Numbered from the stretch's first letter, positions 1-64,000 are shown. The stretch: 64,000 nucleotides of DNA from a virus (IMGVR_UViG_3300009873_000022:607-64606), one strand, 5' to 3'. Numbers and translations are program-made. The notes: generated by a model from the letters alone, not told the origin.

Positions 1-417
1 TTGGACATCCTCCACTGTGCGCGCCTCTTTGCGGATCATCACCGCCAGCCTGCGCCTTTCTTGACACGCTTTTCCACGGCCGTTGCCACTGCCCCACTCA
101 TTTCGTGGACAACCCTCGCACGTCTTGTTCTGCTTCTTGATAGCCAGCTTGTGAGGCTTCATCCCCTCACCGTCCATGCTGAGCGCAAAGCAGCGTGGAG
201 TATTCGGCTTGTTCGGCTTGAATGCTCCTTTGTAGTACGAGTTCACGTACGAAAAGTCCAGGACGATCACATCAAGTGACCTGCCCTTGTTCTCGCCACC
301 GACCGTGAATCGGCGCTTTTGAATCGAAATCTTGTTGCCTCCTTTGCCCGCGCGTGATTTCTCGCGAGCTCTGGTCTTCTTGGCTTTCGCCTTCATTCGC
401 TCAAGGAATGTAGCCAT
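1..417 (-). CDS. hypothetical protein, 5'-partial in window (start ATG at 417, runs off window at 1); contains CxxC...C Zn-ribbon-like cluster (KTCEGCPRNEWGSGNGRGKAC)
   Basis: Manual reverse translation from ATG at 415-417 reads open to position 1 (139 codons). It is absent from the ORF track because there is no stop in the window. It has the same orientation as the downstream operon. Confidence 0.45.
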   Translation of the reverse strand, partial: MATFLERMKAKAKKTRAREKSRAGKGGNKISIQKRRFTVGGENKGRSLDVIVLDFSYVNSYYKGAFKPNKPNTPRCFALSMDGEGMKPHKLAIKKQNKTCEGCPRNEWGSGNGRGKACQERRRLAVMIRKEARTVEDVQ

Positions 418-9430: not shown

Positions 9431-10026
9431 TCACTCACCGGCACATACAGAGCATGTGTCTTGTCGCTATCAACGAGCTCATATCCATGACGCTCGAACC
9501 ACGAATGGAGATCACTGAGTGTCATTGAGTACATCTTTCGAAGAACGGCCGATGATACATCAATCACTATGACGGGCTTGTACTCCTTTATCATCTTCCA
9601 CGCTCCCCTCAGCGTTAGAAGCTCAGTTCCGTCGCCATGAATATGAATTATGTCGCAATGTGCCAACCGAAGCTCATCGAGCTCGATGCCCTCTATATCG
9701 CCGTCATCGTCCAGTACCAGATGAGAGATGCCGGATTTCTTCTCTGTCTTCAGAGAGTACTTCCCAGCCATGTCCATCACTGCCCTGCGCCATAGACATA
9801 CTGTGGTCGCGTAGCTCTTAGGACTCTGCGTCAGCCACAGTGAATAGAGCTTGGTGAATGCTTGGCCATGCTCAAATGAATGAACCTCTCCGAATCTTGA
9901 CCAGAATTCCCTTGACCACTCACCGTCTCCGGCTCCTATGTCAATAGCGCAATCCCTACCCTTCGTTCGATTGAGCGCCTCCTGGAGAATCCTTATCTCG
10001 GACTTTTCCTTTGAAGGGGATGACAT
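9427..10026 (-). CDS. FkbM-family methyltransferase (likely a sugar or hydroxyl O-methyltransferase)
   Basis: The motifs DIGAGDGEWS and CDIIHIHGDGTELLTLRGAWKMI match the FkbM pattern. The start is uncertain because the track ORF 9427..10098 overlaps the primase by 140 nt. Confidence 0.55.
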   Translation of the reverse strand: MSSPSKEKSEIRILQEALNRTKGRDCAIDIGAGDGEWSREFWSRFGEVHSFEHGQAFTKLYSLWLTQSPKSYATTVCLWRRAVMDMAGKYSLKTEKKSGISHLVLDDDGDIEGIELDELRLAHCDIIHIHGDGTELLTLRGAWKMIKEYKPVIVIDVSSAVLRKMYSMTLSDLHSWFERHGYELVDSDKTHALYVPVSD

Positions 10027-45345: not shown

Positions 45346-45651
45346 TCAAGCCAGATGCACTTGACTAAGTTCCAAGCCATTCATGTCTGCGACGATTTGT
45401 CGATATCGAAGTACTTCGGCATCCATCGCACTTACCATAGCCTCCCAGTACTCGACCTCCGTCATGACTCCCTTCTTGATGAGAAGCTGTACCAGTCCTG
45501 AGTGCTGAACCATTGCAGAGTTCACTCCTACTCGAAGATGCTTTGGCTCTTGATCCTTGCTTCTAGGCATGGAGGCCACTCCAGATTGCATGGCGTGACA
45601 CAGTTCGTTGTACCGTTGCATCAGCTGCGATAGCTTCACTACGTCTTCCAT
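45346..45651 (-). CDS. hypothetical protein
   Basis: The start MEDVV overlaps the SPFH stop as ATGA. The track ORF extends to 45723. Confidence 0.4.
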   Translation of the reverse strand: MEDVVKLSQLMQRYNELCHAMQSGVASMPRSKDQEPKHLRVGVNSAMVQHSGLVQLLIKKGVMTEVEYWEAMVSAMDAEVLRYRQIVADMNGLELSQVHLA

Positions 45652-46610
45652 CACTTTACTCCTGTGCTGAAAAATGGGATGGGAAGGCTGGCGTTGTACT
45701 GCTGTGGCAGTTGACCGTTCCACCGCTCAGCCTTGGTCTGCTCAACCTGAATGCGCAGCACTTCGAGCACATCCTTGTTCTGCTGAAGCGCGGCGTTCTG
45801 GATCTTCATGGCATCTGCCTTTGCAGTGGCATTCTTCAAGGTGGCATATGCCTCGCCGTCAGCAGTGGCCCTTACTGCAGACGCCTCTGCTTCTGCAATG
45901 GCAACCTTCTGCTTCTGTTCAGCTTCGACGGTCTTCAGCTTGTTCTCAGCACCGAGGCGAAGCTGCTCTTGTGTCACCTTGTCATTGATGGCGTCCATGT
46001 ACGACTTGCTGAATGCAAAGTTGCGCATATCGATGTTGACTACCTGTGCGCCATACAGGGCCAGCTTCTGCCCTAGCGCAGCATAGATATCTGACGATAC
46101 CGCTGCTCGTTTCGCAATGAGATCAGGTGCAGTGTACTTCGCAGTCACGGCCTTGAAGATTTCCTGTGCGGCTGTTTGCACGTAGCTGGAAAGATCACCG
46201 TCGTGTGAGTACTTCTCATAGACCTCCGCGACCTTGTCTGGGCTGATGGAGTAACGAACTGTCAGACTGACTGTCACTGGCTGCGTGTCAGAGGTTGAGC
46301 CGTTTGCATTCTCAATATCAGCTTGCTCAGCACGAACATTGAACAGCGCAATCTTCTGCCACGGAGGAAGGATAGCCAGCCCTTCCTGTTCAATGCCAAC
46401 GATCTTTCCGAATTGAGTCACTACACCACGACTTCCCGTTGGAACAGAATAAAATGGCCACAGAATACTGATCGCGATGAGTATCGCTATGGTAATCAGT
46501 ACGTCCCTGATGATGGCCGTAAAGTTCACCTCTGTGACTACCCTTGCTGGCCCTCTTCCGAATGCGTCTTCGATTGTCTTTGTCTTGGTGTATCTGTCTT
46601 TGATGCTCAT
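45651..46610 (-). CDS. SPFH/band-7 (prohibitin/HflKC-like) membrane protein
   Basis: An N-terminal TM segment is followed by an SPFH core and a C-terminal A/E-rich coiled coil. Confidence 0.75.
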   Translation of the reverse strand: MSIKDRYTKTKTIEDAFGRGPARVVTEVNFTAIIRDVLITIAILIAISILWPFYSVPTGSRGVVTQFGKIVGIEQEGLAILPPWQKIALFNVRAEQADIENANGSTSDTQPVTVSLTVRYSISPDKVAEVYEKYSHDGDLSSYVQTAAQEIFKAVTAKYTAPDLIAKRAAVSSDIYAALGQKLALYGAQVVNIDMRNFAFSKSYMDAINDKVTQEQLRLGAENKLKTVEAEQKQKVAIAEAEASAVRATADGEAYATLKNATAKADAMKIQNAALQQNKDVLEVLRIQVEQTKAERWNGQLPQQYNASLPIPFFSTGVK

Positions 46611-46617
46611 GCTTCCC

Positions 46618-47259
46618 TCAGAATAGTTTGAACGTTATGAACCCGTTTTTCCAGAATGATGCCGATCCATCTTCTTGTACAGGCGTCTCCGGTACCTCGA
46701 AATCGAAATGATACTCTTTATCTAGTAACCTCCTTGCCTTGGTCAAGCCTCTGTATGCAGTGAGCATGGCCAGCCTCTTGTTATGTAGATCTCGTTTGGC
46801 AACATCATACATGGACAGCAGAGGATGATCAGCATTCTTTTTCTTAGCTGCCTTTTCCAACTTCTTCAGATGTTTTCTGGCTGCCGCATTCGTGTCTAGA
46901 TCGCCCTCAACCCTCTCGATATTCTGCTCTACAATGAGGATCACATGGTTGAGAAAGTCTGCATCCTCGTTCCCCAGAACTTGCCTCAACGCTTCGGTCA
47001 CTATCTGGCGAATGATCAAGTGCGCGTACTCTTCTCTAGATAGGCTTTTCTTTGTTTCTCCTTCTTTGTCATACCGATCCCTCTTTTCTGGGTCACTCAG
47101 TATTTCATAGGCGCGATTGATCTCTGCCATCTTTTCATTCGCGTCACTGCTCTTGTTTCTATCCGGATGATAGTGAGATGACTTTCTTCGGAAGGCTTTT
47201 CGTATCTCATCCTGTGTGGCATTGGGTCTGACGCCCAAGATTTCATACAGACTAGCCAT
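46618..47259 (-). CDS. DnaJ (J-domain) co-chaperone-like protein
   Basis: The J domain is [31 protein letters not shown], with the HPD motif. Confidence 0.75.
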
Positions 47260-49760: not shown

Positions 49761-50085
49761 GCCCGCTACAATCCGGGCAGGCACTCGGGTCACGCGGCTT
49801 GTCAACGTTCATGGCGGCGGACTGCTCCATGTTTTGCCGGATGCGCTCCTGAGTTTCCCTTTCCTCAAGGATCTCAATGTACTTCTGGAGATAGTGCTGT
49901 GCCTTCTTCAGATCCTCGATTCCATTTTTCTTTTTGTGACGGAACACATACTTGGTGATGTTCCCTTGGAAGTAGTCGAGATTGAAGATATTCACTACAT
50001 CCCAGTGTTCAATGCCTCCGGTCTGATAGTGACTACCACCGACTTGAGTTTCGTTTGCCTTACTTGTAGACTGGCCAACCATGAT
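49720..50085 (-). CDS. DUF3310-like protein
   Basis: The motif GGSHYQTGGIEHWDV is present. The internal start MVGQ avoids overlap with the HD gene. Confidence 0.4.
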   Translation of the reverse strand: MMVGQSTSKANETQVGGSHYQTGGIEHWDVVNIFNLDYFQGNITKYVFRHKKKNGIEDLKKAQHYLQKYIEILEERETQERIRQNMEQSAAMNVDKPRDPSACPDCSGLLGAHRAWCPRCY

Positions 50086-50629
50086 AGGTCTCCTGTACCA
50101 AAGCGAGTGAGTAACGGGCCTCGAAGGCCATGCTGAATACCTCATAGAGCCACTTGGTCTGCTCATTGATATCCATGAGTCCACGTTCGCGTATGGCAGT
50201 GAGTCCATTCATGGCAACCGTGGCCATGATTCTGTTTCCACTGTCTACCTCCTCCATTGAGAAGATCACCAGCTCCATGATGTCACAGAATTTAAGTACG
50301 CGCTTCTCAATGCCACTCAGCTCCGTGTGCATACTGAATTCATTCTTGATCCGCTCCTCGACTACGCGAAGCGCTGACTCGAGTTCTGGGTGACGCCACT
50401 TGACCGGAGATGGAACATCACCAGTGATCCCCTCTGGTGCGTCATGGTACAGTGCTGCTCGCCACAGTGCTTTCGATGCGGTCGGTAGCACAATATCAAT
50501 CAATGCCAGTATCCCGAACGTGTGCTCACCAACTGTCTGTTGATGCACAGGAGGAAGAGTGTGAAGCCGCTTTACTCTGGCAACCACTCGCATCAACTTC
50601 AGCCTGTCGAATTCTTGTTTACCGTACAT
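50060..50629 (-). CDS. HD-domain phosphohydrolase (YfbR-like 5'-deoxynucleotidase family)
   Basis: H...HD...D is present as HTFGILALID...YHDAPEGITGD. Confidence 0.7.
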   Translation of the reverse strand: MYGKQEFDRLKLMRVVARVKRLHTLPPVHQQTVGEHTFGILALIDIVLPTASKALWRAALYHDAPEGITGDVPSPVKWRHPELESALRVVEERIKNEFSMHTELSGIEKRVLKFCDIMELVIFSMEEVDSGNRIMATVAMNGLTAIRERGLMDINEQTKWLYEVFSMAFEARYSLALVQETYHGWPVYK

Positions 50630-50630
50630 G

Positions 50631-51665
50631 TCAACCTCCCTTCACAGACATTCTGCGCTGAAGCCATTCAATGCAGGCGATCTTCCAGTCTTCCGCCTTG
50701 CAGTGTGCAGCCAGATGGTTGATTGCCTCTTGGGTTTGTCCGGCCTTGTGCATGTCCCACGCCAGTTGAATGGGGAAGAAGACATCCAGGAAGTACGAAT
50801 CATAGTGCCCACACTGTTCCCTGTGCGCGCCTTCCATCACTTCTAGCAGTTGGAACAACCACTCTTCCCATCTTGTGCCATTGATCAATGGGTACGGCTT
50901 GATGTTCTGTGTGGCGTACCTATCCACGCTCGCCGGGCTGGACCGCACCTTCAACCATGCGTCCTGTTGAGTGTAGACATGAAAGCTGTCGCTCACTTGG
51001 ATGTATGACCCTACCTCTACGCGCAAGGCGCGAGCCACGAATTCTTGAATGGTGCTGAACTGTACTGCGTTCGCTCCGTATGCTCCCCAGATGGCGTCGT
51101 TGCTGCGGCAGCTTACCGTGATGTTCAACCTTCCATCGCGCAACTTGAAGAAGATCAGATCATTGCACGGGATATCCTTCGAATTAGCCCCGAGGTCTGC
51201 AATTGGATCCCAGATGGCCACCACTGCGCGACGAGTATCTGGATCGTCACCAAGAAGTCTGATGACGCGACGGAGCTGATCAATTCCATGGAATGCCCTG
51301 ATTCGAAAGCCGTAAGCTCCGTGGAATGTCTCTCCATTGTCACTGTACTCAGACATCTTCTTGTTATAGCGAGTCAGTGTCGCTACGTCATTGCGCCCAT
51401 CGATGATCCACAGAGCCTCCATGAAATGGAAAAACGGATTCGCGTCTCTTTCTGGCGAAAAGAGCACACGCTCATCCGGTCGCAGGTACTCTGTAATCCA
51501 CAGACCCTTGTACTCCGCTGTCTCCATTCCACGGGGAGATATCACCCTCCAATTCTCCGAGTCTTGAATGGCCTCGACCGCACTGATCCTGAGATTGTTC
51601 AGTGCCTGATTCACATTTCTTACCACGACTGATCTAATCACTTCTTTCTCCTTTTGATTTCCCAC
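50631..51665 (-). CDS. thymidylate synthase-family enzyme (ThyA or dUMP hydroxymethylase; Cys nucleophile retained with His replaced by Asn)
   Basis: The protein aligns by eye to ThyA. LWIIDGRND aligns to LWFLQGDTN. AYGFRIRAF aligns to VYGKQWRAW. DPDTRRAVVAIWDP aligns to DPDSRRIIVSAWN. IPCNDLIFF aligns to APCHAFFQF. RSNDAIWGAYGAN aligns to RSCDVFLGLPFN, and the uracil-specific Asn is kept. Confidence 0.8.
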   Translation of the reverse strand: MGNQKEKEVIRSVVVRNVNQALNNLRISAVEAIQDSENWRVISPRGMETAEYKGLWITEYLRPDERVLFSPERDANPFFHFMEALWIIDGRNDVATLTRYNKKMSEYSDNGETFHGAYGFRIRAFHGIDQLRRVIRLLGDDPDTRRAVVAIWDPIADLGANSKDIPCNDLIFFKLRDGRLNITVSCRSNDAIWGAYGANAVQFSTIQEFVARALRVEVGSYIQVSDSFHVYTQQDAWLKVRSSPASVDRYATQNIKPYPLINGTRWEEWLFQLLEVMEGAHREQCGHYDSYFLDVFFPIQLAWDMHKAGQTQEAINHLAAHCKAEDWKIACIEWLQRRMSVKGG

Positions 51666-52648
51666 GGTCTAAGTACAACTTCTGACAGCGTCCTTATCTT
51701 GGTAGCGCCATCAACGGCCGTTCTATCACTGCCGGTAGGCATTCTCAATTCTTTCTTGCCCTTCTTGTCGGGTAGCAGCCCAACACGGTATGACTTGGCA
51801 TCACACACGTTGCACGGCTTCAACGAAGCTCTGTCACCTTGCATCAAGAATCTTCTTGCCGCCATGAACTCATTACCGTTCCACACGGCATCGAGGCCGT
51901 CCTTCACGATGTTTCCACACTGATATACGCCGCGCCAGTCATTACAGCAGATGGCCACTTCTCCATCCCATCGAATGGATAACTCACGGAATGGCTTCGC
52001 GCATCTGGCCTTCAACGGTTCTTTCAGTCCGGGGGAGCCAGAGCCGCAATGATTGTTCAGTGTCGAGTGTGTCCCGGCCTGCGCTACACTGATATCCTGT
52101 ACGCGAATGAATACTCGCGCCTTGTGCCCGTATCTGTTGTGTGGTGACCAGTCCTTTTCTTGTGGATAGGCATGTACTTCGAACACGTTTGAATCGAACG
52201 ATGAGAATTGTTCTGTGTTCGAAAACAGAATCGGGTCAATCTTGTCCTTGATCTTCACATACTCATAGGCATCGAATGCAAATACATTCAAGCCTGCATC
52301 AAACAGCTCTCTCAATGACTCGAACACTCCGGGTGGACGCAATAGCCCACCACCATTGGATGTCATCATCAACTGTACATTCGGCAGATACCTGCGGAAT
52401 GCCTTGACGATCTTGATGTAGTTAGGGTTCATCGTCGGTTCGCCATGCATTGCGAACTCAATGCGAGGATTCCACCCTGCCTCTGCAATCTGACCAGCGA
52501 TACTCTTGGCAGTAGCCACGGTCATGAACTTGAAATTCTTCTCCTTCTGTGTGCGGATACCCTGTAGCCCACAGAAGTCGCAATAGAGGTTGCAGCCCTC
52601 ACTGAGTTCCACCTGTACGGCGAACGGAGCTTCTTGTCTGTACTTCAT
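51638..52648 (-). CDS. radical SAM enzyme with a SPASM-like C-terminal domain
   Basis: The CxxxCxxC motif is EGCNLYCDFCG. The C-terminus has CCNDWRGVYQCGN...CNVCD. Confidence 0.8.
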   Translation of the reverse strand: MKYRQEAPFAVQVELSEGCNLYCDFCGLQGIRTQKEKNFKFMTVATAKSIAGQIAEAGWNPRIEFAMHGEPTMNPNYIKIVKAFRRYLPNVQLMMTSNGGGLLRPPGVFESLRELFDAGLNVFAFDAYEYVKIKDKIDPILFSNTEQFSSFDSNVFEVHAYPQEKDWSPHNRYGHKARVFIRVQDISVAQAGTHSTLNNHCGSGSPGLKEPLKARCAKPFRELSIRWDGEVAICCNDWRGVYQCGNIVKDGLDAVWNGNEFMAARRFLMQGDRASLKPCNVCDAKSYRVGLLPDKKGKKELRMPTGSDRTAVDGATKIRTLSEVVLRPWEIKRRKK

Positions 52649-53673
52649 TTCAACATCTCCTCTATGTACATCTGACCGACCAGCTTGGGATCGTGCTCTC
52701 TCAGCAGTCTGTACCCATGATGTACGATCTCTCCAATCGAAGACCTGCGCAGTGGCAGTCCATTCAGTATGGCAGACACATTGAACGCCAGTTCACTTGG
52801 CCCATTGACTGGGATTACGTGCCTCCACTTTCGTAGCTCACCATTGTATCGGAACCAGTCGTAGTGCATGATGTTGACACATCCAGCATCCATGGCCTCC
52901 ATCTGCGCGTACTGTGTGCCACCTCCATCATCTGGAAACCATGTCATGTCCACGTTCACCGTAGCTGCCGCAGCCAATCTCACTGGAGCATCAAAAGTCA
53001 TGGGATACTGAAAGGTCTTACCACTCTGCTGAAAGACATCACCGTATTTCGCTTCGAGTTGCTTGGTGTACATGCGAAATTCAGCGCCCAGAAGCTTCAC
53101 CCTGTACTGTGGCTCGAGCATCCTGTTTGCCTCCAGCACGATCCTCGGGCGTTTGACACTGGCAATTCGCGCAATGGATATCGCTTCATTTCTCCTGCGA
53201 ATCTCAGGAAACGGACCAGCACGCATGTATGGATGTGGAATCCACACTGCGTCCTTGTAGAAGTGCCGTATCGTTGGACGGATACAGATGGGCCGCGTTG
53301 CCAGTTTGGTGACCTTTCCCAAATGATCGTAGATCGTGAATTCATTTGGGTCATGAATGACGGTGCGCATACCATCGGCCATCAAGCGCATGATCATATC
53401 TGGAGGAGTGAGGTACTTGGAATTCGCCGGTGATCCCATCACGGTAGGCATGTCTTTGACTATGGTCCTAGCCTCGCTGAATGTGATGTTCCTGTATTTC
53501 ACTCCTTCATACTGTGCAAAGTTTCGTAGCCTCTCTGGCGGTTCGCCACGAGGTTTGACACGAAGTATCACGGGTTCGTGTCCAGCGGCTTCGAACGCTT
53601 TGAACAAGTGCGCAGTGAACGTGGATGTTCCGCCTCCAAGGTACGGGCGAAAGAAGAATATTCCTACTTTCAT
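52645..53673 (-). CDS. GT-B fold glycosyltransferase, possibly DNA-modifying (the N-terminus recalls T4 alpha-glucosyltransferase)
   Basis: MKVGIFFFRPYLGGGTSTF...AAGHEPVILRV is compared with the T4 AGT N-terminus MRICIFMARGLEGCGVTKF...GHEVTLV as recalled from memory. Confidence 0.45.
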   Translation of the reverse strand: MKVGIFFFRPYLGGGTSTFTAHLFKAFEAAGHEPVILRVKPRGEPPERLRNFAQYEGVKYRNITFSEARTIVKDMPTVMGSPANSKYLTPPDMIMRLMADGMRTVIHDPNEFTIYDHLGKVTKLATRPICIRPTIRHFYKDAVWIPHPYMRAGPFPEIRRRNEAISIARIASVKRPRIVLEANRMLEPQYRVKLLGAEFRMYTKQLEAKYGDVFQQSGKTFQYPMTFDAPVRLAAAATVNVDMTWFPDDGGGTQYAQMEAMDAGCVNIMHYDWFRYNGELRKWRHVIPVNGPSELAFNVSAILNGLPLRRSSIGEIVHHGYRLLREHDPKLVGQMYIEEMLK

Positions 53674-53792
53674 CTATGGGCTCCCAGCGATATCGCCTTA
53701 CAATGAACACACTGGTAGACACCACCCTTGAGATGATTGAACTTGAACTCCCATTTGCAGTTAAGGAATAGACACCTGATTGAGTACCTCAT
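53670..53792 (-). CDS. possible 40-aa Zn-ribbon microprotein, translationally coupled (ATGA overlap)
   Basis: The sequence MRYSIRCLFLNCKWEFKFNHLKGGVYQCVHCKAISLGAHR has CxxxxC...CxxC. The longer track ORF 53670..53918 overlaps the upstream gene. Confidence 0.25.
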   Translation of the reverse strand: MRYSIRCLFLNCKWEFKFNHLKGGVYQCVHCKAISLGAHR

Positions 53793-54664
53793 ATGATCCC
53801 TTCCCCTTTCAACTTGCTCACGTTCAATTGCAACTCGAAATTGAAATGCGGCAACTCGTACGGAAAAGCCTTGCGCCAATTGATACGAACATCGGTGCGT
53901 TCTTTCATTCCTTCCCACGATGTAGCACCGATCACTTTCTTTCGAACAACGGTTACGTACTTGGGATGCGCATCACGCAGCATGTGTGCCGCCTTGGCCT
54001 GTGTCTCTTCGTTACGGTAGATACTGCACCCTCCCTTCATATTAGACCCGGTCTGGTTCCAGCAGTAGTCGTAGACACAGGCATTTGGAATTCCACGCTC
54101 AAGAAGCGACAATGTCACGTGAAAGTCCTCCATGACCCTGTACTCATCGAACCTTAGCCCGGTCTTGGCAAACTCTTTGATGTTGAACCCATGAACATTG
54201 TTGATGCGCGTACACCATCTGTAAGGGCTTAGATAGTGTGATGAATCTACACGGCTAGACAACCCTGTCTGCACGATTCCCATGCTGAGTGGCCTGACCA
54301 TCATGTAGAGCATGTGCCTCATGTCAGGTGCAGTGGCCTTCACTAGTTTGATGGCTCTTGGTCTTTCTCTACGGTAGAAGTAGAGGTCGTCATCGAACAT
54401 CAGAGCATACTTGGTAGGGCAATGATCAAGTATCCACTGTCTGGTCTTGCCAATCCCCTTCTTTGATATACCCAAGACCTTGAATAGTGAATTTGGGTGA
54501 TGCTGTCTGTATTCAGATACCTCATCAATTGGCACTACGACCCTGACCTTGCCAGCCTCTGAAAGTTCTACTGGCATGGCATAGAACGTTCGCACATCTG
54601 CGGCCCTACCCCTACTGGGAATGTAGATGGTAGTGTCTTCCATCAACTCTTCGTACGAACTCAT
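53789..54664 (-). CDS. putative GT-A fold glycosyltransferase (DxD-like MFDDDLYFY)
   Basis: The N-terminus IYIPSRGR is Rossmann-like and an acidic DDD motif is present. The protein is 291 aa. Confidence 0.4.
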   Translation of the reverse strand: MSSYEELMEDTTIYIPSRGRAADVRTFYAMPVELSEAGKVRVVVPIDEVSEYRQHHPNSLFKVLGISKKGIGKTRQWILDHCPTKYALMFDDDLYFYRRERPRAIKLVKATAPDMRHMLYMMVRPLSMGIVQTGLSSRVDSSHYLSPYRWCTRINNVHGFNIKEFAKTGLRFDEYRVMEDFHVTLSLLERGIPNACVYDYCWNQTGSNMKGGCSIYRNEETQAKAAHMLRDAHPKYVTVVRKKVIGATSWEGMKERTDVRINWRKAFPYELPHFNFELQLNVSKLKGEGII

Positions 54665-54672
54665 GAGTGCTC

Positions 54673-55662
54673 CTATAATGGTAACTCGTGCTGTAGTGTC
54701 CCCACTCCTGTCGGTGTGAAAAGACTGCGCGGCCTTCCCTCACCATTCTTGACGCGCATGTACTTGTCGAACTCGCAGAGTGAATGTTCAATCTCTCGCA
54801 TCTCGAATGGAAGTTCCGTTCCACGTGCATGTGCTTTGGAGTATACGAACATGTTGAACCAACTCCCCTGTATCAGAAGATCTCGCATGACAGCATTGTA
54901 ATCAATCTTCCTGTACTTCTTGGTCTTTGGACGTTCAGCGCTGCCAGTCAGCAATCGATGAATGCCGCGCTTCGCACCGGGTCCGGGGTTGGCCCATGAC
55001 TCACTGTCAATGTTCTTGGCAAGGACCCTAGTGTACCTTAGATCACACGCTATCTCATATGCAACGAATGGCCCAATGGTATAGATCTCGCTCAGTGCCT
55101 CGACTGCCTTTTCCATTGAGCGATGATTCGCTATCTGCGCCGCCAGTTCATCGCGCTTTTCAAAGAGTTCCTGTAGTGCCTCACATATGACAACGATCTT
55201 TGACTCCTTTCGCCCGCCAGATGTAACGATGTACGCGCCAGTGAATATCTGCTTTCCCTCTGCTTTTCGTTTCTCCAGAATCTTGATGGCACGATCTTTG
55301 ACCCACAGGTTCTTCGACCACTTTCCCTTGGTGAGTTCGCTACGTGGTAGCCCAAAGAACAGAGCATCGTAGGTCTCTGGCCAATTGAACAGTCGAAACA
55401 TGGCACAGTGGAAGATGATATCACCATCGGTCATTTCCTTACCGCGACCGAGAAGACGTACGAACCGGTCTACCCAAGCGAGTGTCACACGGTCAAGTTG
55501 CCTGAATACATTGGTGAACTTGTATTTGGACAGTATCTTGTCCTTAGTGTATGGTGGGGACCTCTTCTCTACGAATCTGCGTAGATAGATTGAATGACGC
55601 TCATTGATGAAATACCAGAATGTCTTCAATTGAGTTTTCCGGTACGCAATCTTATCGGCCAT
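54673..55662 (-). CDS. hypothetical protein in the DNA-modification-like cluster
   Basis: 329-aa ORF with no recognisable motif by eye. Confidence 0.45.
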   Translation of the reverse strand: MADKIAYRKTQLKTFWYFINERHSIYLRRFVEKRSPPYTKDKILSKYKFTNVFRQLDRVTLAWVDRFVRLLGRGKEMTDGDIIFHCAMFRLFNWPETYDALFFGLPRSELTKGKWSKNLWVKDRAIKILEKRKAEGKQIFTGAYIVTSGGRKESKIVVICEALQELFEKRDELAAQIANHRSMEKAVEALSEIYTIGPFVAYEIACDLRYTRVLAKNIDSESWANPGPGAKRGIHRLLTGSAERPKTKKYRKIDYNAVMRDLLIQGSWFNMFVYSKAHARGTELPFEMREIEHSLCEFDKYMRVKNGEGRPRSLFTPTGVGTLQHELPL

Positions 55663-55719: not shown

Positions 55720-56721
55720 TTAGGCGGCGACCTTGACGTAGCCGTTAGCCACGAGCCAGCTCACGTATCCCTTCATCTTCTTCTCAGGGATGTCATGCTG
55801 CTTCTTGGCCAGACGAACAGCCTTGCCGTAGCTGGTCTTGGAGCCAATGACAGACTGTGCCTGCTCGCGCACTCCACCTTTGAATGCCTTGACCGTAGAA
55901 AGCATGGTTTCTTCAGTCAGCTTGGTGCGCTTGCTGCGCTCCTTCTTCTCCTTCTTTTCGGTAGCAGGGGCATCATCAGAACTCCGCTTCTTCTTTTTCT
56001 TTGCAGGAGCCTCCTCGCTGACCTTCTCCTTTTTCTTCTTGGAAACCTTTTCTTCTGACGGCTTGCTCTTCTCAGACTTGCTCATCTTCGTACTCCTATC
56101 TCTTGGTGCGACCGGCCAGATCTTCAACGTTTCGTCCCGGTCTTTAAGTTTGAAACGAACGTCGTTGTCATCGGAAACAACTCCGAGGACGCGATGCATC
56201 ATGTACTCTACGGTGTGAAATGCCTTGGTGTATGTTTGTGTCTTTACCTTTTTGCCAAGCCCTCCTGCAATAAGTCGGTTGAGATCGTCCCATGAAAACT
56301 GTGCCAGTGTTGTCTGTATCTCATACACGAAATTCGAATCATTGTACGCATCCTTTTCCGTGCGCATGTACACGGGTATGGATGGCGTCCATCTCTTATC
56401 GTTGTTCTTGTCCTTTTCGTAATCAGCAATCTTTTCATTGATGATCTTGACGTAGCGGGCCAAGAACTTCTTTCCATTGATGGCGCTGCGCGGTATGGTT
56501 TCCCTGAGTTCACGCCTGAATGTCATTGCTGCAGAGTGTGGATCCTCCTTGGTATTCTTGTAGTTTTCCTTTCGATTCTTCTTTTCTTCCTCGCGCTTCT
56601 TTGCGTTCTTTGCGTACCGCTTGAGATCCTTGTCAGTGGACGGTACGAATGCGGGAGTGGTACTTGCCTCTGATGTCTTGGACTTTTTCTTTGAGAGTGA
56701 GTCTTTCTTTTCCTTTACCAT
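55720..56721 (-). CDS. lysine-rich histone H1-like DNA-binding protein
   Basis: Poly-K/E tracts such as KKKEKVSEEAPAKKKKKRS are present. The C-terminus has a winged-helix-like globular segment of about 70 aa. Confidence 0.55.
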   Translation of the reverse strand: MVKEKKDSLSKKKSKTSEASTTPAFVPSTDKDLKRYAKNAKKREEEKKNRKENYKNTKEDPHSAAMTFRRELRETIPRSAINGKKFLARYVKIINEKIADYEKDKNNDKRWTPSIPVYMRTEKDAYNDSNFVYEIQTTLAQFSWDDLNRLIAGGLGKKVKTQTYTKAFHTVEYMMHRVLGVVSDDNDVRFKLKDRDETLKIWPVAPRDRSTKMSKSEKSKPSEEKVSKKKKEKVSEEAPAKKKKKRSSDDAPATEKKEKKERSKRTKLTEETMLSTVKAFKGGVREQAQSVIGSKTSYGKAVRLAKKQHDIPEKKMKGYVSWLVANGYVKVAA

Positions 56722-58186
56722 AGCGTTTCTCCATTGCCTTTAACAGTGACCGTTGAGTCTTGTCTTTCGAGTGCAGTGAATCGACCATGATTTCATCGAC
56801 AGTTCCCTGCGCTATGATCCGATAGACGATCACTCTGCGCTTCTGACCCTGTCGCCATATTCGCCTTATGAACTGTTCATAGTTTTCCAAGTTCCAGGTT
56901 AGCGAAAAGAATATAACGATGCCTCCCCTGCCCTCCTGCAGATTGAGGCCATGCGCTATGCTGTCTGGTTGCCCTGCCATGCCCGGCAGAGTGCCTTTGT
57001 CCCATTGTCGTAGATACTTCTCTACCTCTTTATCCTTGGTGTGTCCACCAATGAATGGAATGTCCTTGAACTGTGGCGCATGCTTTGCGAAGTATCGCTT
57101 CATACGCTCCATGTCGTGCCTGAACTCATACGCTATCAGTGCGGGCTCACCGTTCAGTTCCTCCAGAAGATCGACTAGTTCCTCGCACTTAGCGTCATGT
57201 ATCTTACGCCATTTCTTGCGTGGCTTTAGTGGGTTCTCATTGACTATCTCGCCCGTCTCAGAGTAGAACGCTCCGCCATTGGCTATCTGACGCAGTTTTC
57301 CAGACGCCACGGCAGCGTTCGCTGCCACGATGTCACCTTCATTGTACTCAAGCACGAATTCCTTTTCCATCTTTCGATACGTGGCCATGGACTTATCATC
57401 AAGCTGCACATACCGATCCACGTAAGTGAGTGGCGGAAGATCCAACTTCTCATCACCGAAACGAAGTATCAGGTGCCTGATGCGCCTGAACATCCTCTTC
57501 TTCGCGCCACGCTGAAGTTCCCAGGCATATCCCATGTACCCGGAGGGATAGAAGTATTCATTCCTGAATGCGGTGATGTACGGCCCGAAGGCCTCACCTA
57601 GGTCTAACGTGTATATCTGACCGAACAATCCCATCAATCCGTTTGGGGCTGGAGATCCAGTCATGATGTACCTTCTATCGAAGAACTTCAAGATACTCTT
57701 TAGAGTACGGAATCTCACCGTATTGGTGTGTCGTAGCTTGCTGGACTCATCTACTGCCAGCATCACACGTTTTCCACGCTTGAACCACTTCTTCTGGCGC
57801 TTCAACCAAGGCAACCCCTCGTAGTTCATCAGACGGATATCTGCATCCTTGTACAGGGCATCTTCTTTCTTTCCTCCGTGAACTATGGAGTACTTGAACT
57901 TCCGCGTATCCCGCCACTTCGATATTTCTTTTGGCCACACATTCAGGATGATCCTGCGCTTTGCCAAGACCATCAATTCATCAACTATCCCAAGCGACTT
58001 GAGTACCTTGAAGATCATCAAGATGATCATGGTCTTCCCAAGACCAGGAGCCAAGAAGAATCCAGCGGCAGGGTTTTCAACTCCGTGCGCGATGCATTCT
58101 TCTTGATAGTCTTTCGGTACGAACCTTGGCCATTTCGATTTCTTTCTCAAGGAGTGAGAGGGCCTCCGCCGCGCTATCGACTTCAT
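56633..58186 (-). CDS. SNF2-family helicase
   Basis: Motif I is APGLGKT. Motif II is LAVDESSKL. Motif VI is QGQKRRVIVYRIIAQGTVDE. Confidence 0.8.
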   Translation of the reverse strand: MKSIARRRPSHSLRKKSKWPRFVPKDYQEECIAHGVENPAAGFFLAPGLGKTMIILMIFKVLKSLGIVDELMVLAKRRIILNVWPKEISKWRDTRKFKYSIVHGGKKEDALYKDADIRLMNYEGLPWLKRQKKWFKRGKRVMLAVDESSKLRHTNTVRFRTLKSILKFFDRRYIMTGSPAPNGLMGLFGQIYTLDLGEAFGPYITAFRNEYFYPSGYMGYAWELQRGAKKRMFRRIRHLILRFGDEKLDLPPLTYVDRYVQLDDKSMATYRKMEKEFVLEYNEGDIVAANAAVASGKLRQIANGGAFYSETGEIVNENPLKPRKKWRKIHDAKCEELVDLLEELNGEPALIAYEFRHDMERMKRYFAKHAPQFKDIPFIGGHTKDKEVEKYLRQWDKGTLPGMAGQPDSIAHGLNLQEGRGGIVIFFSLTWNLENYEQFIRRIWRQGQKRRVIVYRIIAQGTVDEIMVDSLHSKDKTQRSLLKAMEKRYGKGKERLTLKEKVQDIRGKYHSRIRTVH

Positions 58187-58424
58187 ATGTCTTGTGTCCC
58201 AACTTCTTCAGTTGCCTGTGTCTGTAGTCCTGTAGCGGTTCAGATTCTGTATCTGTTCTTTTGAACTCGAACAGTACGGTAGTCCCATACTTAGCAAGAA
58301 CGAGCTGGTCATTGAACCCGTTGCTACCGTAGGCTCCCTTCGTCTGCATCTTGTACGCGATGTATCCTTTCCTGCGCACGGCCCGAACGAACTTGTTCTC
58401 CTCTATTCGTTCGGGCTTGCTCAT
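58077..58424 (-). CDS. VRR-NUC domain nuclease
   Basis: D...LFEFKR together with the PD-(D/E)xK-like core matches the VRR-NUC family. The protein is 115 aa. Confidence 0.6.
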   Translation of the reverse strand: MSKPERIEENKFVRAVRRKGYIAYKMQTKGAYGSNGFNDQLVLAKYGTTVLFEFKRTDTESEPLQDYRHRQLKKLGHKTYEVDSAAEALSLLEKEIEMAKVRTERLSRRMHRARS

Positions 58425-58627
58425 ACGTCCTCACCAGACAGTTTTCGCAACCAGTTCAACTGCGCATATGACACAGAGCAATCCATGCCGAATCTTCCAA
58501 ACCTGTGCACCATGTCATCAACGAACTTGATGGCAGCCTCTGATACCGCCCCTTTCTCTGCCGCGTCAAGCAGCTCTTCGACTTCACTGACTGTCGCGTA
58601 ATGATCTTTGAATTGTGTCTTGCTCAT
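58421..58627 (-). CDS. small hypothetical protein
   Basis: 68-aa ORF. Confidence 0.35.
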   Translation of the reverse strand: MSKTQFKDHYATVSEVEELLDAAEKGAVSEAAIKFVDDMVHRFGRFGMDCSVSYAQLNWLRKLSGEDV

Positions 58628-59301
58628 GACATCACCTTCTTCCAGTGCTTACAGGTTCCACCCGGTTGACTGCTGCGGTGGGAACACCACTTACATGAAT
58701 TGATTGACGGTGTGGGTAGAAACTTCCTCTCACTCATCAGCCGCTTTCCCTCGCCTATCCAGTGTCGCGTGAGAATCTTCAGTTCTGAGTCTGTGAATGA
58801 CAGCTTCATGGTATCACCGCTATCAATGTACCAGAACTCTACCTCGGCACCATCACTCCTTGGAAACTTGATCTTCGATGTGATCGCCCCGAGTTCAGCC
58901 TGCTGTGTCCATTCAGGCCAGATCTTGCCAGTCTTGTAATCGATATACAACACTGGCGCGTTTCGAGGAGGAACGACAGCATCGCTCTTGCTTACGAACT
59001 GCCCTTGGTACTCTTTCGCCGGTTTGAAATCAAGATCGAAGTTCCAGTACTCTTCTGCCACGGGAGTAGCGGCCTTCAAGCCCTTGAACTCATACTCGAA
59101 CAGTTTCAGATCCTCTGGAACAGACTTGATGGCTCCCTTGACATATGCCTCAGCCATCTTATGAATGGCATCACCGCGCAGCATGGCTGGCCCTGGAGGT
59201 TGTCGAATCTTGTCAATGTACGAAAGCTTCACTGCGTACAGGCACTTCTTGGATTGCGCCCATAGCGAGTATGACCATCGCTTCAGTTGATACTCTTTCA
59301 T
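58624..59301 (-). CDS. Cas4/RecB-like PD-(D/E)xK exonuclease with a 4-Cys cluster
   Basis: An N-terminal Cys is present, with the motif IDYKTGK and the C-terminal cluster CKWCSH...GTCKHW. The start MKEYQ follows GGAGG. The track ORF extends to 59487. Confidence 0.6.
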   Translation of the reverse strand: MKEYQLKRWSYSLWAQSKKCLYAVKLSYIDKIRQPPGPAMLRGDAIHKMAEAYVKGAIKSVPEDLKLFEYEFKGLKAATPVAEEYWNFDLDFKPAKEYQGQFVSKSDAVVPPRNAPVLYIDYKTGKIWPEWTQQAELGAITSKIKFPRSDGAEVEFWYIDSGDTMKLSFTDSELKILTRHWIGEGKRLMSERKFLPTPSINSCKWCSHRSSQPGGTCKHWKKVMS

Positions 59302-59312
59302 TGAACCTCCAA

Positions 59313-59885
59313 TTAGAATACGCGCTTCCACCACGGACGATTCACATACTGCATGATTTGAATCAAGTGACGCGCCTGATTTTTCGCATCGTCGAGCGCG
59401 TCGTGCGATGTCCCGTAGTACGTTGCCTTGACATCTCGGTTCAGTGCATACATGGTACGGTGACACATCACGTCTTTGTACGACCACAGTACAGGCAGCT
59501 CACATGCTCGAAGAGCATTCTGCACAATCGGAATGTCGAATGCCGCGCCCATGCTCCAGACTCTGATTCGATCAGTTGGCTCATTCTTCCGTGAACGCAG
59601 CCAATCATTGAACCGCCACAGCATAGAATGGAGGGCCTCTGGATCCCTCATCCATCCCATCTTTGCCTCTGCTGACTGAGTCTTCCACCAGTCAATGGTC
59701 TTCTGATCGAAGTGCAGCCCTGCGCGCATGTTACTGCCGGGGGTAGCGTTTCCCTTGAACTCATCTCCCAGTGTTCCCTTGCCAAAGTCCATTGTCACTG
59801 CCGCCAGTGAAACCACTGCCGCGTTTGATTGCAGACTCATGGTCTCTGTGTCGATCATCACTTCAATGAATTTATCCACTCTCAT
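59313..59885 (-). CDS. DnaQ-like DEDD 3'-5' exonuclease
   Basis: Exo I is VMIDTET and the Exo III-like motif is YGTSHDALDDA. Confidence 0.7.
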   Translation of the reverse strand: MRVDKFIEVMIDTETMSLQSNAAVVSLAAVTMDFGKGTLGDEFKGNATPGSNMRAGLHFDQKTIDWWKTQSAEAKMGWMRDPEALHSMLWRFNDWLRSRKNEPTDRIRVWSMGAAFDIPIVQNALRACELPVLWSYKDVMCHRTMYALNRDVKATYYGTSHDALDDAKNQARHLIQIMQYVNRPWWKRVF

Positions 59886-60435: not shown

Positions 60436-61323
60436 TTATCGTTTAATGAACTCTTTCATACGAATTGTTCTTACGGCCAAAGCTGCTGCAATGCTGCGAA
60501 CCATATCTGGTGAGGCAGCTACTCTATCGAGAGACGGTAAGCTATTTGACATCCCCTTACGCGTAATCAATGATGCACTGTCCATTACTACCCTAGCCCC
60601 ATCAGATCTATATGGCTGCAATAGACTGTACCTAATGGTTCTGTTCAGAGCCTCATAGACTAGCTTAAATATCGCTGGGTCTAATGAAAACTCAGTCTGT
60701 AATGGGCCACCATAGTTGATAGAATCGTAATAGCTATCGATTGAATTCTCAGTCCCCATCTTAAAGATAAATCCAAACATCAACATGACATTCATCCATG
60801 CGGCCATAGCTCTGTTAACACTTTTCCCCGGAAACATTTCCTTGAACTGTGCATACATACGCATCGTTTCTGATGTTTCTCTGCCGCGCTGGAGGTTATA
60901 GATTATGCCTGCTTTTCTAAACGCTCCTCCAATAATGAAAGCCATTAGTATATCAGCTACGACTCTCGGGTTATTAGTCTGAAGATCGGCGAGTACGAAG
61001 GACACTGGATATTCAACTGGCCAACTCTGCATCACAGTTACTAAATCCCCGGGAACAACTATTACACCCTTCTTGCGAAGAATATCTACAACTTTTGGAT
61101 TACGCTCTATTGCTACTAAACAGTGATCCTTATACTTCTTCTTCAGTGCCACACTCCGATCTATATCCCTAGTTCCAGGTAGATATAGAATCAGAGCATC
61201 GTGCTTGTTAGGTGCATGCTTCTCAACTATATTCCAGCAAGTTCTTCTCCAATGATCCTTGGTATAGTTATCATACTCTACAGCATCGATAGTTTCTACC
61301 TTGTTCATTTTGCCCTCGCCCAT
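60436..61323 (-). CDS. hypothetical protein in an AT-richer segment
   Basis: 295-aa ORF whose local GC is visibly lower than its surroundings. Confidence 0.45.
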   Translation of the reverse strand: MGEGKMNKVETIDAVEYDNYTKDHWRRTCWNIVEKHAPNKHDALILYLPGTRDIDRSVALKKKYKDHCLVAIERNPKVVDILRKKGVIVVPGDLVTVMQSWPVEYPVSFVLADLQTNNPRVVADILMAFIIGGAFRKAGIIYNLQRGRETSETMRMYAQFKEMFPGKSVNRAMAAWMNVMLMFGFIFKMGTENSIDSYYDSINYGGPLQTEFSLDPAIFKLVYEALNRTIRYSLLQPYRSDGARVVMDSASLITRKGMSNSLPSLDRVAASPDMVRSIAAALAVRTIRMKEFIKR

Positions 61324-63197
61324 GAAAAATCAGACACCTTCGGATCAGCAAGCATCGGAACATTGAACTCCATATCACACATGGCATCTGCAATCCGCCT
61401 GCCGTGCGCAGCACTAGGGGCCATGCACACTAGCTCGTCATGCACCTGCAATGCAATGCGCGCGTCTGGCACCTGCTGGAACACATTGATCATGCCTTGC
61501 TTGGTCACGTCTGCCGCGGACGGTTGAATGAGATAATTGAGCATCTTGTACTCGAAGCTCATCCAGAACTCTTCGCCGGTATGCTTGTTCCTCAGATACT
61601 TTGGTTCCTCGCAGAAGTACTCACGACCTCCCCATGTGGTCAATGGCTTTCCACGACGCTCAAGGTCCTTGAGCTCATCAATTAGGCCCTTGATTCCTGG
61701 AACAGCCTGCAGAATGCCGTCACGCACCTTCTTGGCAGTGTTCTTGTCCAAACCCATGCCGTGAGCCAGCTTATCCAAGCCCATGCCGTAGATCAGACCG
61801 AACACCGTCACCTTGATGGCCTTTCGAGGAATATCAATTCCCAGAATCTTGCCTACCAGAACGCGGCAGAAGTCGTGGACGTCCAACTTCGGGTTATCAC
61901 GGTATGCCTTCATCAACACACCTCTTTCGAAGTGTGCCAGCAACCTGAGTTCTTGTTGATTGTAGTCAACTGTGATCAGAACAGAGTCTTCATCAGGGAT
62001 GATGAAGTCACGCAACCCAATGAAGTCATAGCCGTGCTGATCCTTGGCCCATAACTGCATCAGCAGCAACGTATCCTTGTTCTTTGAATCCTCCACATTG
62101 CCAGCCACGTTCTGGAAGTTCGGATCGTACGATGACATTCGACCGCTGCGCGCTCCACCGCCTCCTTCATCGGTCTTGTTCCTTACTTGGTTGAAGCGCG
62201 GTAGAACCCGACCATGTGTCAATTCAGCCTGTTCAATCCACGGAATGATGAATGAGCTCGTGTACTTCTTGATGACTGAATGGATGGCCAGCAAATCGAG
62301 CAGCCGCTTGTCGTTGCAGGTAGCCTTCAAGTTCTCTACCTTCGTACTTACCTTGCCAGTCGGAGTCTTGATGATTGAATCCAGCTTGTTACTGGCGATC
62401 AATGCCTTGGCCAGTTGCGCACCGCTGTCTACATTGAACCGCTTCTTGACATCAGGGTTGTCCATATCACCAGGACTGATGCGAAGCCTCTTGCATATCC
62501 TTCGAACGAGGTCCTTGTCCATCTTCTCGAAGACATGCAGACACTCTTTCAGTCTATCCATGTCTACCCGAACACCGCTGCGCTCCATCTCCAATGTGAT
62601 TGGAGTAAGTGCCAGTTCGCGCCTGTACGCTGGCAGCATTCCACGGTCTGCTATCTCTGGCCGTATTTTGTCCCACAGACGGTACGTCCTATCAACGTCA
62701 CCTATAGCATACGGACCAAGGATGCTTGGAGGGCACTTCCACATATGCTCGCCCCAGCTACTCGGCTTTCGCTTTGCCTCAGGGATGTTGGACAGCACCC
62801 AATCCTTCACTCGGTCTGACTCTTCTGGCGGCATGTCCAGATACACTTCAGCCAGTGGCTTCAGTGCCAAAGTCTCTTCGTGTGGGTTCTGCAGGAATGA
62901 TAGATACAGAGTGTCCTCCACCGTTGATGGTGGCGAAAGCCCCCAGTGAGTCTCTATCACATCTGTATCGAATGAGTTGTTGTGAAACACAACGGGCATT
63001 CCAGACCTGTAGATGTCCTTCACTACCTCTCTGGCAGTGCCGACGCTACAGTTGTTTCCCTCTGTATGCCCGAATGCATAGTACTTCTTGTTCCCCAAGA
63101 GATCTCTGACTGCCACTCCCACTGGAACCGGTGGATAGTACGGGCGCGACTCGATTGACTTGGTTTCGAGGTCGACAGTATATGCGGCCTGTTTCAT
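61305..63197 (-). CDS. DNA polymerase I (family A) with an N-terminal 3'-5' exonuclease
   Basis: Exo I is VDLET and Exo II is HNNSFD. Pol motif A is DYNQQELR, motif B is KVTVFGLIYGMG and motif C is QVHDELV. Confidence 0.85.
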   Translation of the reverse strand: MKQAAYTVDLETKSIESRPYYPPVPVGVAVRDLLGNKKYYAFGHTEGNNCSVGTAREVVKDIYRSGMPVVFHNNSFDTDVIETHWGLSPPSTVEDTLYLSFLQNPHEETLALKPLAEVYLDMPPEESDRVKDWVLSNIPEAKRKPSSWGEHMWKCPPSILGPYAIGDVDRTYRLWDKIRPEIADRGMLPAYRRELALTPITLEMERSGVRVDMDRLKECLHVFEKMDKDLVRRICKRLRISPGDMDNPDVKKRFNVDSGAQLAKALIASNKLDSIIKTPTGKVSTKVENLKATCNDKRLLDLLAIHSVIKKYTSSFIIPWIEQAELTHGRVLPRFNQVRNKTDEGGGGARSGRMSSYDPNFQNVAGNVEDSKNKDTLLLMQLWAKDQHGYDFIGLRDFIIPDEDSVLITVDYNQQELRLLAHFERGVLMKAYRDNPKLDVHDFCRVLVGKILGIDIPRKAIKVTVFGLIYGMGLDKLAHGMGLDKNTAKKVRDGILQAVPGIKGLIDELKDLERRGKPLTTWGGREYFCEEPKYLRNKHTGEEFWMSFEYKMLNYLIQPSAADVTKQGMINVFQQVPDARIALQVHDELVCMAPSAAHGRRIADAMCDMEFNVPMLADPKVSDFSWARAK

Positions 63198-63508: not shown

Positions 63509-64000
63509 TTACTTCTTGCCCTTCTTGGCAAACCGCGACTTCGCCGGGGCCTTCTTGGCTGGCTTCTTTGCCGGGGCCTTCTTGGCTGGCTTCTTTGCCG
63601 GGGCTTTCTTGGCTGCACCCTTCTTGCCCTTCTTCACGGGCTTCTCATCCTCATCGTCCTCATCCTCGTCGTCCTCATCCTCATCCTCATCATCCTCGTC
63701 GTCCTCATCCTCATCGTCCTCATCGTCCTCATCGTCCTCATCGTCCTCATCGTCCTCGTCCTCGTCCTCGTCCTCATCGTCCTCATCGTCCTCGTCCTCG
63801 TCCTCGTCCTCATCCTTCTTGCTCTTCTTGCCCTTCTTCACGGGCTTCTCATCCTCATCGTCCTCGTCCTCGTCGTCCTCGTCCTCATCCTCATCCTCAT
63901 CCTCATCCTCGTCTTCGTCTTCGTCTTCGTCTTCGTCTTCGTCTTCGTCTTCGTCTTCGTCTTCGTCTTCGTCTTCGTCTTCGTCTTCGTCTTCGTCTTC
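63509..64000 (-). CDS. poly-acidic (Glu/Asp repeat) protein with a C-terminal H1/AlgP-like AKKPAKK tail; 5'-partial, open through the window end
   Basis: Read on the minus strand from the window end, the sequence is (ED)n...EKPVKKGKKSKK-(D/E)n-EKPVKKGKKGAAKKAPAKKPAKKAPAKKPAKKAPAKSRFAKKGKK*. The track start at 63841 is a GTG inside a longer open frame. Confidence 0.55.
   Translation of the reverse strand, partial: EDEDEDEDEDEDEDEDEDEDEDEDEDEDEDEDEDEDEDEDEDDEDEDDEDEKPVKKGKKSKKDEDEDEDEDDEDDEDEDEDEDDEDDEDDEDDEDDEDEDDEDDEDEDEDDEDEDDEDEKPVKKGKKGAAKKAPAKKPAKKAPAKKPAKKAPAKSRFAKKGKK
63906..64000. repeat. perfect hexanucleotide tandem repeat (GTCTTC)n of about 15 units, running to the window edge, encoding (Asp-Glu)n on the minus strand
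   Basis: The repeat is visible in the sequence. Confidence 0.9.

Follow-up and report, generated by a model that had tools for sequence, protein, structure and literature searches.

A family of phage proteins with two basic modules, encoded downstream of an SNF2-family ATPase

The DNA analysed here (the window, 64,000 nucleotides in all) is a tailed-phage genome, and within one long minus-strand operon it carries a 333-aa ATG-to-stop open reading frame (55720-56721) whose product is unusually rich in lysine. The earlier note on this DNA had read the product as a histone-H1-like protein with a winged-helix C-terminus, paired by opposite charge with a poly-acidic protein encoded in the same genome. 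Here we ask whether this protein (the target) is related to linker histones, and which function its sequence, predicted structure and genomic neighbours favour (Table 1).

Table 1. Features of the target gene, the encoded protein, protein X and the surrounding operon in the window.
Feature	Coordinates	Strand	Basis or remark
Target gene (333 aa + stop)	55720..56721	-	Undescribed phage protein family; HMM matches, purifying selection
GGAG ribosome-binding site	56729..56732	-	7 nt 5' of ATG 56721-56719
SNF2 3' end / target 5' end overlap	56633..56721	-	89 nt, out of frame; encodes target basic N-tail, residues 1-24 and onward
Folded basic N/central domain, residues 25-208	56098..56649	-	AlphaFold 2 and family alignment
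First winged-helix-like unit (probable), residues 124-192	56146..56352	-	Three helices, then beta-hairpin
Disordered K/E/S-rich linker, residues 209-267	55921..56097	-	pLDDT 41-58; holds lysine tract
C-terminal winged-helix domain, residues 268-333	55723..55920	-	Net charge about +7 to +10
SNF2-family ATPase ('helicase')	56633..58186	-	Pfam SNF2-rel_dom 2.9e-18, Helicase_C 1.8e-8; PHROG 62
Protein X, C-terminal poly-D/E tract and AKKPAKK/SRFAKK basic tail	63509..64000	-	Frame open to 64000; stop 63509-63511
Protein X, N-terminal domain	1..417	-	phmmer E 2.9e-43 to N-domain of L004:865-2025
DNA polymerase A (PolA)	61305-63197	-	Target operon
Rv2179c-like exonuclease	59313-59885	-	Target operon
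PD-(D/E)XK nuclease	58624-59487	-	Target operon
VRR-NUC-like endonuclease	58077-58424	-	Target operon
aGPT-Pplase-like HMUDK_hel protein	54673-55662	-	Target operon
TAGT glycosyltransferase	53789-54664	-	Target operon
GT4-like protein	52645-53673	-	Target operon
Radical SAM/SPASM protein	51638-52648	-	Target operon
Thymidylate-synthase-like protein, hydroxymethylase candidate	50631-51665	-	Target operon
HD nucleotidase	50060-50629	-	Target operon

The gene, its start codon and its relatives

The target is a real, constrained gene, and the lysine-rich protein that the earlier note described is borne out by the reading frame, its composition and its mode of selection. It has 18.9% lysine, a pI of 9.9 and a net charge of +36; of the complete ORFs among the 69 in the window that reach 100 aa (median 5.8% lysine, s.d. 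4%) it is the richest in lysine, and the lysine tract quoted previously, KKKEKVSEEAPAKKKKKRS, corresponds to its residues 229-247 (window 55981-56037). Comparison with the 81% identical orthologue in the related locus L001 gave a dN/dS of 0.068 over residues 61-208, 0.053 over the C-terminal domain (residues 268-333) and, with three indels, 0.143 over the linker, the fastest-evolving part. In the segment shared with the SNF2 gene dS was 0.42 vs. about 1.5 elsewhere, as is expected where both frames code. Plus-strand ORFs over the target region are most likely antisense artefacts of lysine and glutamate codons, judging from their translations.

The ATG at 56721 is supported as the start codon by conservation of the ribosome-binding site and the ATG itself (the GGAG-N7-ATG arrangement is also kept in L001), by a family-wide N-terminal motif, F-x-P-S-T, that only an in-frame start at this position retains, and by a predicted N-terminal helix. 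We rejected a start at M66, the automatic call for P0001, which would remove a helix predicted at pLDDT above 90; the call for P0002, which begins from GTG, likewise shortens the protein.

Direct searches with the target gave no family match in Pfam, PHROGs, NCBIfam or PDB sequences, tblastn against 50,697 phage records gave no match, and an IMG/VR search for related loci with the whole target or either domain found none. A word-indexed protein search returned only the target itself and one relative, and no more than two or three relatives even with a 36-sequence profile. The family came to light when 1.84 billion cluster representatives were searched exhaustively with HMMER, 42 of which belong to it (E 1e-171 to 3e-4), all of them from metagenomes. 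The resulting family HMM matches the target over both its N/central domain (E 7.7e-72) and its C-domain (E 3.7e-26).

Family members share one order of parts: an N-terminal motif, a central domain, a low-complexity linker and a C-terminal domain of about 65 aa. The N-terminus usually reads MGFGKK and is followed by F-x-P-S-T-x-E-D/E-L-K-x-Y and a basic helix; in the central domain P116, Y118, D128, F131, W144 and W202 (target numbering) are nearly invariant and present in the target, as is the C-domain signature K-x-F-x-G-G-V...Y-x-S-W-L-x-x-N-G. Neither Pfam, PHROGs, NCBIfam and the PDB nor the literature searched yielded a description of the family. Winged helices and charged disordered linkers are familiar parts; their combination and the strict coupling to an SNF2 gene are not.

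The C-domain also occurs outside the family. Stand-alone homologues of 77-119 aa, consisting of an AKKP-type basic tail and the winged helix, were found in metagenomes and in Steroidobacteraceae metagenome-assembled genomes (MAGs; loci L008-L011 and L014/L015 646-882). In two MAGs a 546-aa large serine recombinase neighbours the stand-alone gene at the edge of the contig; elsewhere an NRPS gene is close by. These settings may point to a host clade, or to a mobile element as the source of the domain, and there is a hint of Steroidobacteraceae or Xanthomonadales-like hosts. One family member, P0013, carries DUF3489 (PF11994, E 2.3e-5), which we take to be a small HTH-type domain, in place of the C-domain. 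The target C-domain itself does not match DUF3489, and the DUF3489-like tail of P0013 had no significant match among PDB sequences. Together, the stand-alone copies and the swap in P0013 mark the C-domain as an autonomous, exchangeable module.

Predicted folds, charge and linker

AlphaFold gave the target a mean pLDDT of 82.4 on the 46-row family alignment and 40.6 on a 2-sequence alignment. On the former, pLDDT is mostly above 90 over residues 28-208 of the N/central domain, falling to about 66 in the stretch 51-70; the domain begins with F-x-P-S-T and a long helix (residues 30-57), followed by helices at 61-75 and 83-103. Further along, residues 124-192 probably form a winged-helix-like unit in the model. 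No significant structural match to the N/central domain was found in the PDB or BFVD (Foldseek gave nothing below E 0.001 against either).

The C-terminal globular segment that the earlier note had seen as a winged helix does appear as one in the model, over about 66 aa and with pLDDT about 92-95 at residues 271-330: three helices and a beta wing, with a helix-turn-helix core on a small beta sheet. Its structural matches included the MccB peptide clamp (7.6), the SAMD1 winged helix (6.3), the T4 MotA N-terminal domain (6.3), MecI (6.0), Fur/PerR (about 5.9), the KAT6A winged helix (5.7) and RPA32C (5.6), with further matches to the cullin WHB domain, the MCM C-terminal winged helix and SSV1 F-93. 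We also considered whether the two winged-helix units arose by internal duplication, and rejected this as their profiles show no similarity.

Both modules are basic throughout the family. The N/central domain has a net charge of +14 in the target and +4 to +27 (median +12) across the family, positive in every member; for the C-domain, of about 70 aa, the figures are +6 to +15 (median +10), again positive throughout. This conserved charge points to polyanion binding, most simply of DNA, with the linker between the modules as a putative tunable spacer, to judge from the sequences.

The linker differs widely between members, from 33 to 225 aa in length and from +10 to -75 in net charge, so that the family offers a natural experiment in the evolution of disordered linkers between the same two modules. 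In the target it has a net charge of +8 and no acidic tract. Among 34 relatives with both modules, nine (in addition to the target) have a short linker and a pI near 10; the other 25 have a D/E-rich linker, most with long D/E runs interrupted by 'EKPAKKKK' patches, and of these about 20 have a whole-protein pI of 4.6-6.8 and five a pI of 8.4-9.1. Across the family whole-protein pI spans 4.6 to 10.3. Since the linker is a long acidic tract in about two thirds of the members, the polycation is a trait of the target and its near relatives and not of the family.

A comparable layout occurs in eukaryotes: TFIIF alpha (RAP74) has an N-terminal folded domain, a long charged disordered middle and a C-terminal winged helix, the same order of parts as in the target family. 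Three family members match Pfam TFIIF_alpha (best E 3.1e-7), the target does not, and we attribute the matches to the charged low-complexity region, with no relation detected between the folded domains.

The SNF2 neighbour and possible functions

The target gene starts before the SNF2 gene has ended, and this overlap makes translational coupling of the two likely, as read from the gene arrangement. No promoter- or terminator-like signal above background was found between the target and its neighbours. In all ten contexts examined (the window and nine others) the family gene lies downstream of an SNF2 ATPase in a PolA module, in the order PolA, exonuclease and/or PD-(D/E)XK nuclease, SNF2, family gene. 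The family ORF adjoins and overlaps SNF2 in seven of these (the window, L001, L004, the P0013 contig, L012, L016 and L017), and one or two small genes stand between them in the other three (L005, L013 and the P0058 contig). The SNF2 gene of L005 (7403-9763) additionally carries an intein (Pfam Intein_splicing, Hint_2).

Downstream of the target, window positions 50060-55662 (minus strand) hold a thymidine-hypermodification-type cluster, and such genes are present in five of the ten contexts; in at least three there are none (HMUDK_hel, TAGT) within 10 kb. Because the family occurs without hypermodification genes, and because no Walker A/P-loop motif was found in the target protein, we tie the family to SNF2 and not to base modification, and we rejected the target as a missing 5-hmdU DNA kinase or other modification enzyme. 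As a separate observation, the window contains no recognisable P-loop 5-hmdU DNA kinase, an enzyme present in all characterised pathways listed in PMC8989533.

No family member was found in the examined regions of the cultured phages PhiJL001, AXL_3, RSP and MW202621, which carry related SNF2 or aGPT-Pplase genes. As AXL_3, MW202621 and RSP have the most similar SNF2 genes among the cultured phages examined and no family member in these regions, the family appears to be a lineage-specific addition, dispensable for SNF2 function generally.

The explanation we favour, to which we give somewhat less than an even chance, is that the target is a nucleic-acid-binding accessory of the phage replication/recombination module that acts with the adjacent SNF2 DNA translocase. 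It is supported by the low dN/dS of the folded parts (0.05-0.07), by the basic charge of both modules and by the association with SNF2 in every context, as well as by the DUF3489 swap and the AKKP-tailed copy by a serine recombinase, a typical setting for a small DNA-binding protein. Against it, adjacency within a long operon says little about physical partnership, AXL_3, MW202621 and RSP lack the family in the regions examined, and the C-domain resembles peptide- or protein-binding winged helices.

The gene itself, its fold, its place in the family, the conserved charge and the linkage to SNF2 are established; beyond these, on this accessory reading, we infer that the protein binds DNA, cooperates with SNF2 and uses its linker to adjust binding. 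It would consist of two independently folded, strongly basic modules tethered by a flexible charged linker, an N/central module that probably contains a winged helix and the C-terminal winged helix as a second module; these could hold DNA at two points, or one could hold DNA and the other a partner protein. Made in step with the SNF2 motor through the overlapping reading frames, the protein may direct the motor to phage DNA, anchor it there or tune it. The short lysine-rich linker of the target would add non-specific DNA affinity, whereas the acidic linker of most relatives would weaken or regulate such binding. According to PMC9069017, what SNF2 enzymes do in viruses of prokaryotes is unknown. 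Phage replication modules commonly encode SNF2-family ATPases, and a dedicated, strongly basic winged-helix partner would give a concrete experimental handle on what they do there.

An alternative that we regard as rather unlikely is a phage transcription regulator, in which a MotA-like winged-helix activator or repressor would switch early to middle or late expression and the place in the operon would reflect timing only. The strict position behind SNF2 with overlapping frames would not be expected of such a factor, no recognisable operator-like repeats were found near the target gene, and a very high non-specific positive charge with a hypervariable linker is unusual for sequence-specific regulators.

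Similarly, we think it fairly unlikely that the target is a protein-recruitment adaptor, whose RRE- or RPA32C-like C-terminal winged helix would grip the tail of another replication protein or host factor, with the N/central domain bound to SNF2 or DNA. That the C-domain may bind protein and not DNA is suggested by its top structural matches, which include peptide- and protein-binding winged helices. However, the likeness to the peptide-binding winged helices of RREs (MccB, NisB, PqqD) and RPA32C is one of structure only: we found no sequence similarity and no Pfam PqqD/RRE match, the neighbours are replication genes and not a RiPP context, and the C-domain is far more basic, its +6 to +15 on a 70-aa domain fitting a polyanion such as DNA better than peptide capture.

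Eukaryotic SNF2 remodelers have charged-tail DNA-binding cofactors, such as CHRAC-14/16 with ISWI and HMGB1-type proteins. By analogy, the phage pair could be a minimal 'remodeler plus cofactor', an SNF2 translocase coupled to a two-winged-helix cofactor, with the blocky acidic/basic linker and the similarly charged protein X tail (see below) tuning DNA affinity electrostatically or driving a replication compartment or condensate; we consider this decidedly unlikely. If true, it would parallel in function the SNF2 remodelers of eukaryotes and their charged cofactors of HMGB or CHRAC type, which are also small basic DNA-binding partners with charged disordered tails acting alongside an SNF2-family motor. 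The folds differ, however, being a histone fold or HMG box in those cofactors and a winged helix in the target, with no evidence of shared origin, and there is no evidence for nucleosome-like substrates in bacteria. Target residues 22-60 (window 56542-56658, minus strand; FVPST..DL..Y.K and then a K/E-rich helix) align weakly, and without significance (E 0.13), with Drosophila CHRAC-14 (2byk_B) over its C-terminal helix and tail; CHRAC-14 is a histone-fold protein that serves the SNF2 remodeler ISWI as a cofactor.

Linker histones, protein X and the remaining readings

A linker-histone-like compaction system, in which the lysine tract and winged helix would condense phage or host DNA and the poly-acidic protein would serve as counter-ion or chaperone, is highly unlikely in our estimate. 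What speaks for it is the high lysine content and pI of 9.9 together with the winged-helix C-terminus, a poly-D/E protein encoded in the same operon, and the Hc1-type H1-like proteins predicted in some large phages (PMC12619734). Like linker histones H1/H5, the target is lysine-rich and very basic and has a winged helix of about 65-75 aa, and DNA binding without sequence specificity is, by analogy, plausible for it too.

Nevertheless, we detected neither a sequence nor a profile relation to these proteins, and the label 'histone-H1-like' is not supported. Pfam Linker_histone gave no match to the whole target at E<=0.1, and neither Linker_histone nor Hc1 matched isolated segments, the C-domain included, even at E<=10. 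Profile comparison by hhalign with an alignment of eight manually entered H1/H5 globular domains gave a probability of 0.4% over 8 columns for the C-domain (39-sequence profile) and 0.6% for the N/central domain. At E<=0.1 Hc1 (PF07432) matched neither the target nor the acidic ORF (its visible 110 aa), and it was absent from the 46 scanned family members (target plus relatives) at E<=0.01.

The architecture differs as well. H1/H5 have a short N-tail, a central globular domain and a long K/A/P-rich C-tail, whereas the target has its winged helix at the extreme C-terminus, its lysine tract as an internal K/E/S linker, and an additional folded domain of about 180 aa. Chlamydial Hc1-type proteins are likewise small, basic, lysine-rich, prokaryotic or phage proteins proposed to condense DNA, but the target consists mostly of folded domains and not of low-complexity repeats. 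Since the lysine-rich linker is not conserved, and is replaced by an acidic one in most relatives, polycation-driven compaction cannot be the conserved function of the family. These results correct a tempting mis-annotation: a lysine-rich protein with a winged helix is not thereby a histone H1.

The second half of the compaction proposal concerned a 'poly-ED/AKKPAKK protein' at 63509. An acidic stretch and a basic tail are indeed encoded there, but not as a self-contained protein of 110 aa, the frame remaining open to the last nucleotide of the window. They form the C-terminus of what the sequences indicate is a larger conserved replication-module protein (protein X), whose N-terminal domain is encoded at the opposite end of the window and whose middle part falls outside it. 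As both ends encode pieces of one protein, the window represents a circularly permuted genome that is nearly complete. Related phages conserve protein X directly upstream of PolA, for example as L004:865-2025 (387 aa), AXL3_43 and PHROGs 27714/23155, none with an assigned function; it also has a Cys-rich motif, CEGCPxNEWGS...GKAC.

Orthologous protein X tails were found in L001, L004, L012, L013 and L016, those of L001, L012, L013 and L016 sharing an S-R-F-x-K tip. The acidic tail is encoded by tandem 6/9/18-nt repeats. The AXL_3 homologue has basic tails without an acidic tract, so that the poly-D/E run is a lineage-specific expansion. Four independent metagenomic contigs (L001, L012, L013 and L016) stop inside the poly-D/E repeat, which looks like an assembly breakpoint caused by GA-rich tandem repeats.

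The acidic tail of protein X co-occurs with basic-linker and with acidic-linker family members, and comparison thus lends no support to the charge-complementary pair that the earlier note had proposed, though the two proteins may interact. In L016 the acidic tail accompanies a family member whose own linker has a net charge of -58, and at the corresponding position upstream of PolA no X-like acidic tail was found in L005 or L017. We further rejected the idea that the acidic tract is supplied by the linker (in cis) or else by protein X (in trans), as L016 has both and L017, with its basic linker and no X-like tail at that position, shows neither.

Two readings remain. A replication initiator or origin-binding protein with two winged helices, as in iteron-plasmid Rep or Orc/Cdc6, is very improbable: the window already encodes a primase-helicase-type protein (DUF3854 + DUF5906, 9956-12118), to which origin recognition would normally fall, iteron-like repeats turned up by that gene alone and not by the target, and there is no similarity to Rep_3/RepA. 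Hardly credible is a host-takeover or anti-defence factor whose charged linker would mimic DNA (as SPO1 Gp44) or sequester host nucleoid proteins, for while most family members have long poly-D/E linkers and both acidic DNA-mimic phage proteins (PMC8208478) and phage inhibitors of HU (PMC8892312) are known, the linker is the least conserved part and the target has no acidic tract yet keeps both folded domains under strong constraint.

Several other features of the window are recorded here in their own right. The iteron-like repeats comprise two tandem arrays, at 8795-8855 (31 nt x2) and 9365-9424 (AT-rich, 25 nt x2.5), in the gap by the primase-helicase-type gene, and are a candidate origin or regulatory region. 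An AAA_5 (MoxR/dynein-type) ATPase gene (7150-8391) is followed by a gene for a DUF7192 protein (6248-7153), both on the minus strand (6248-8391). Also on the minus strand, a DnaJ-domain protein (46618-47259) and an SPFH/Band 7 protein (45651-46610) are encoded by adjoining genes, unusual cargo for a phage, and the DnaJ-domain gene is present in L001 as well.
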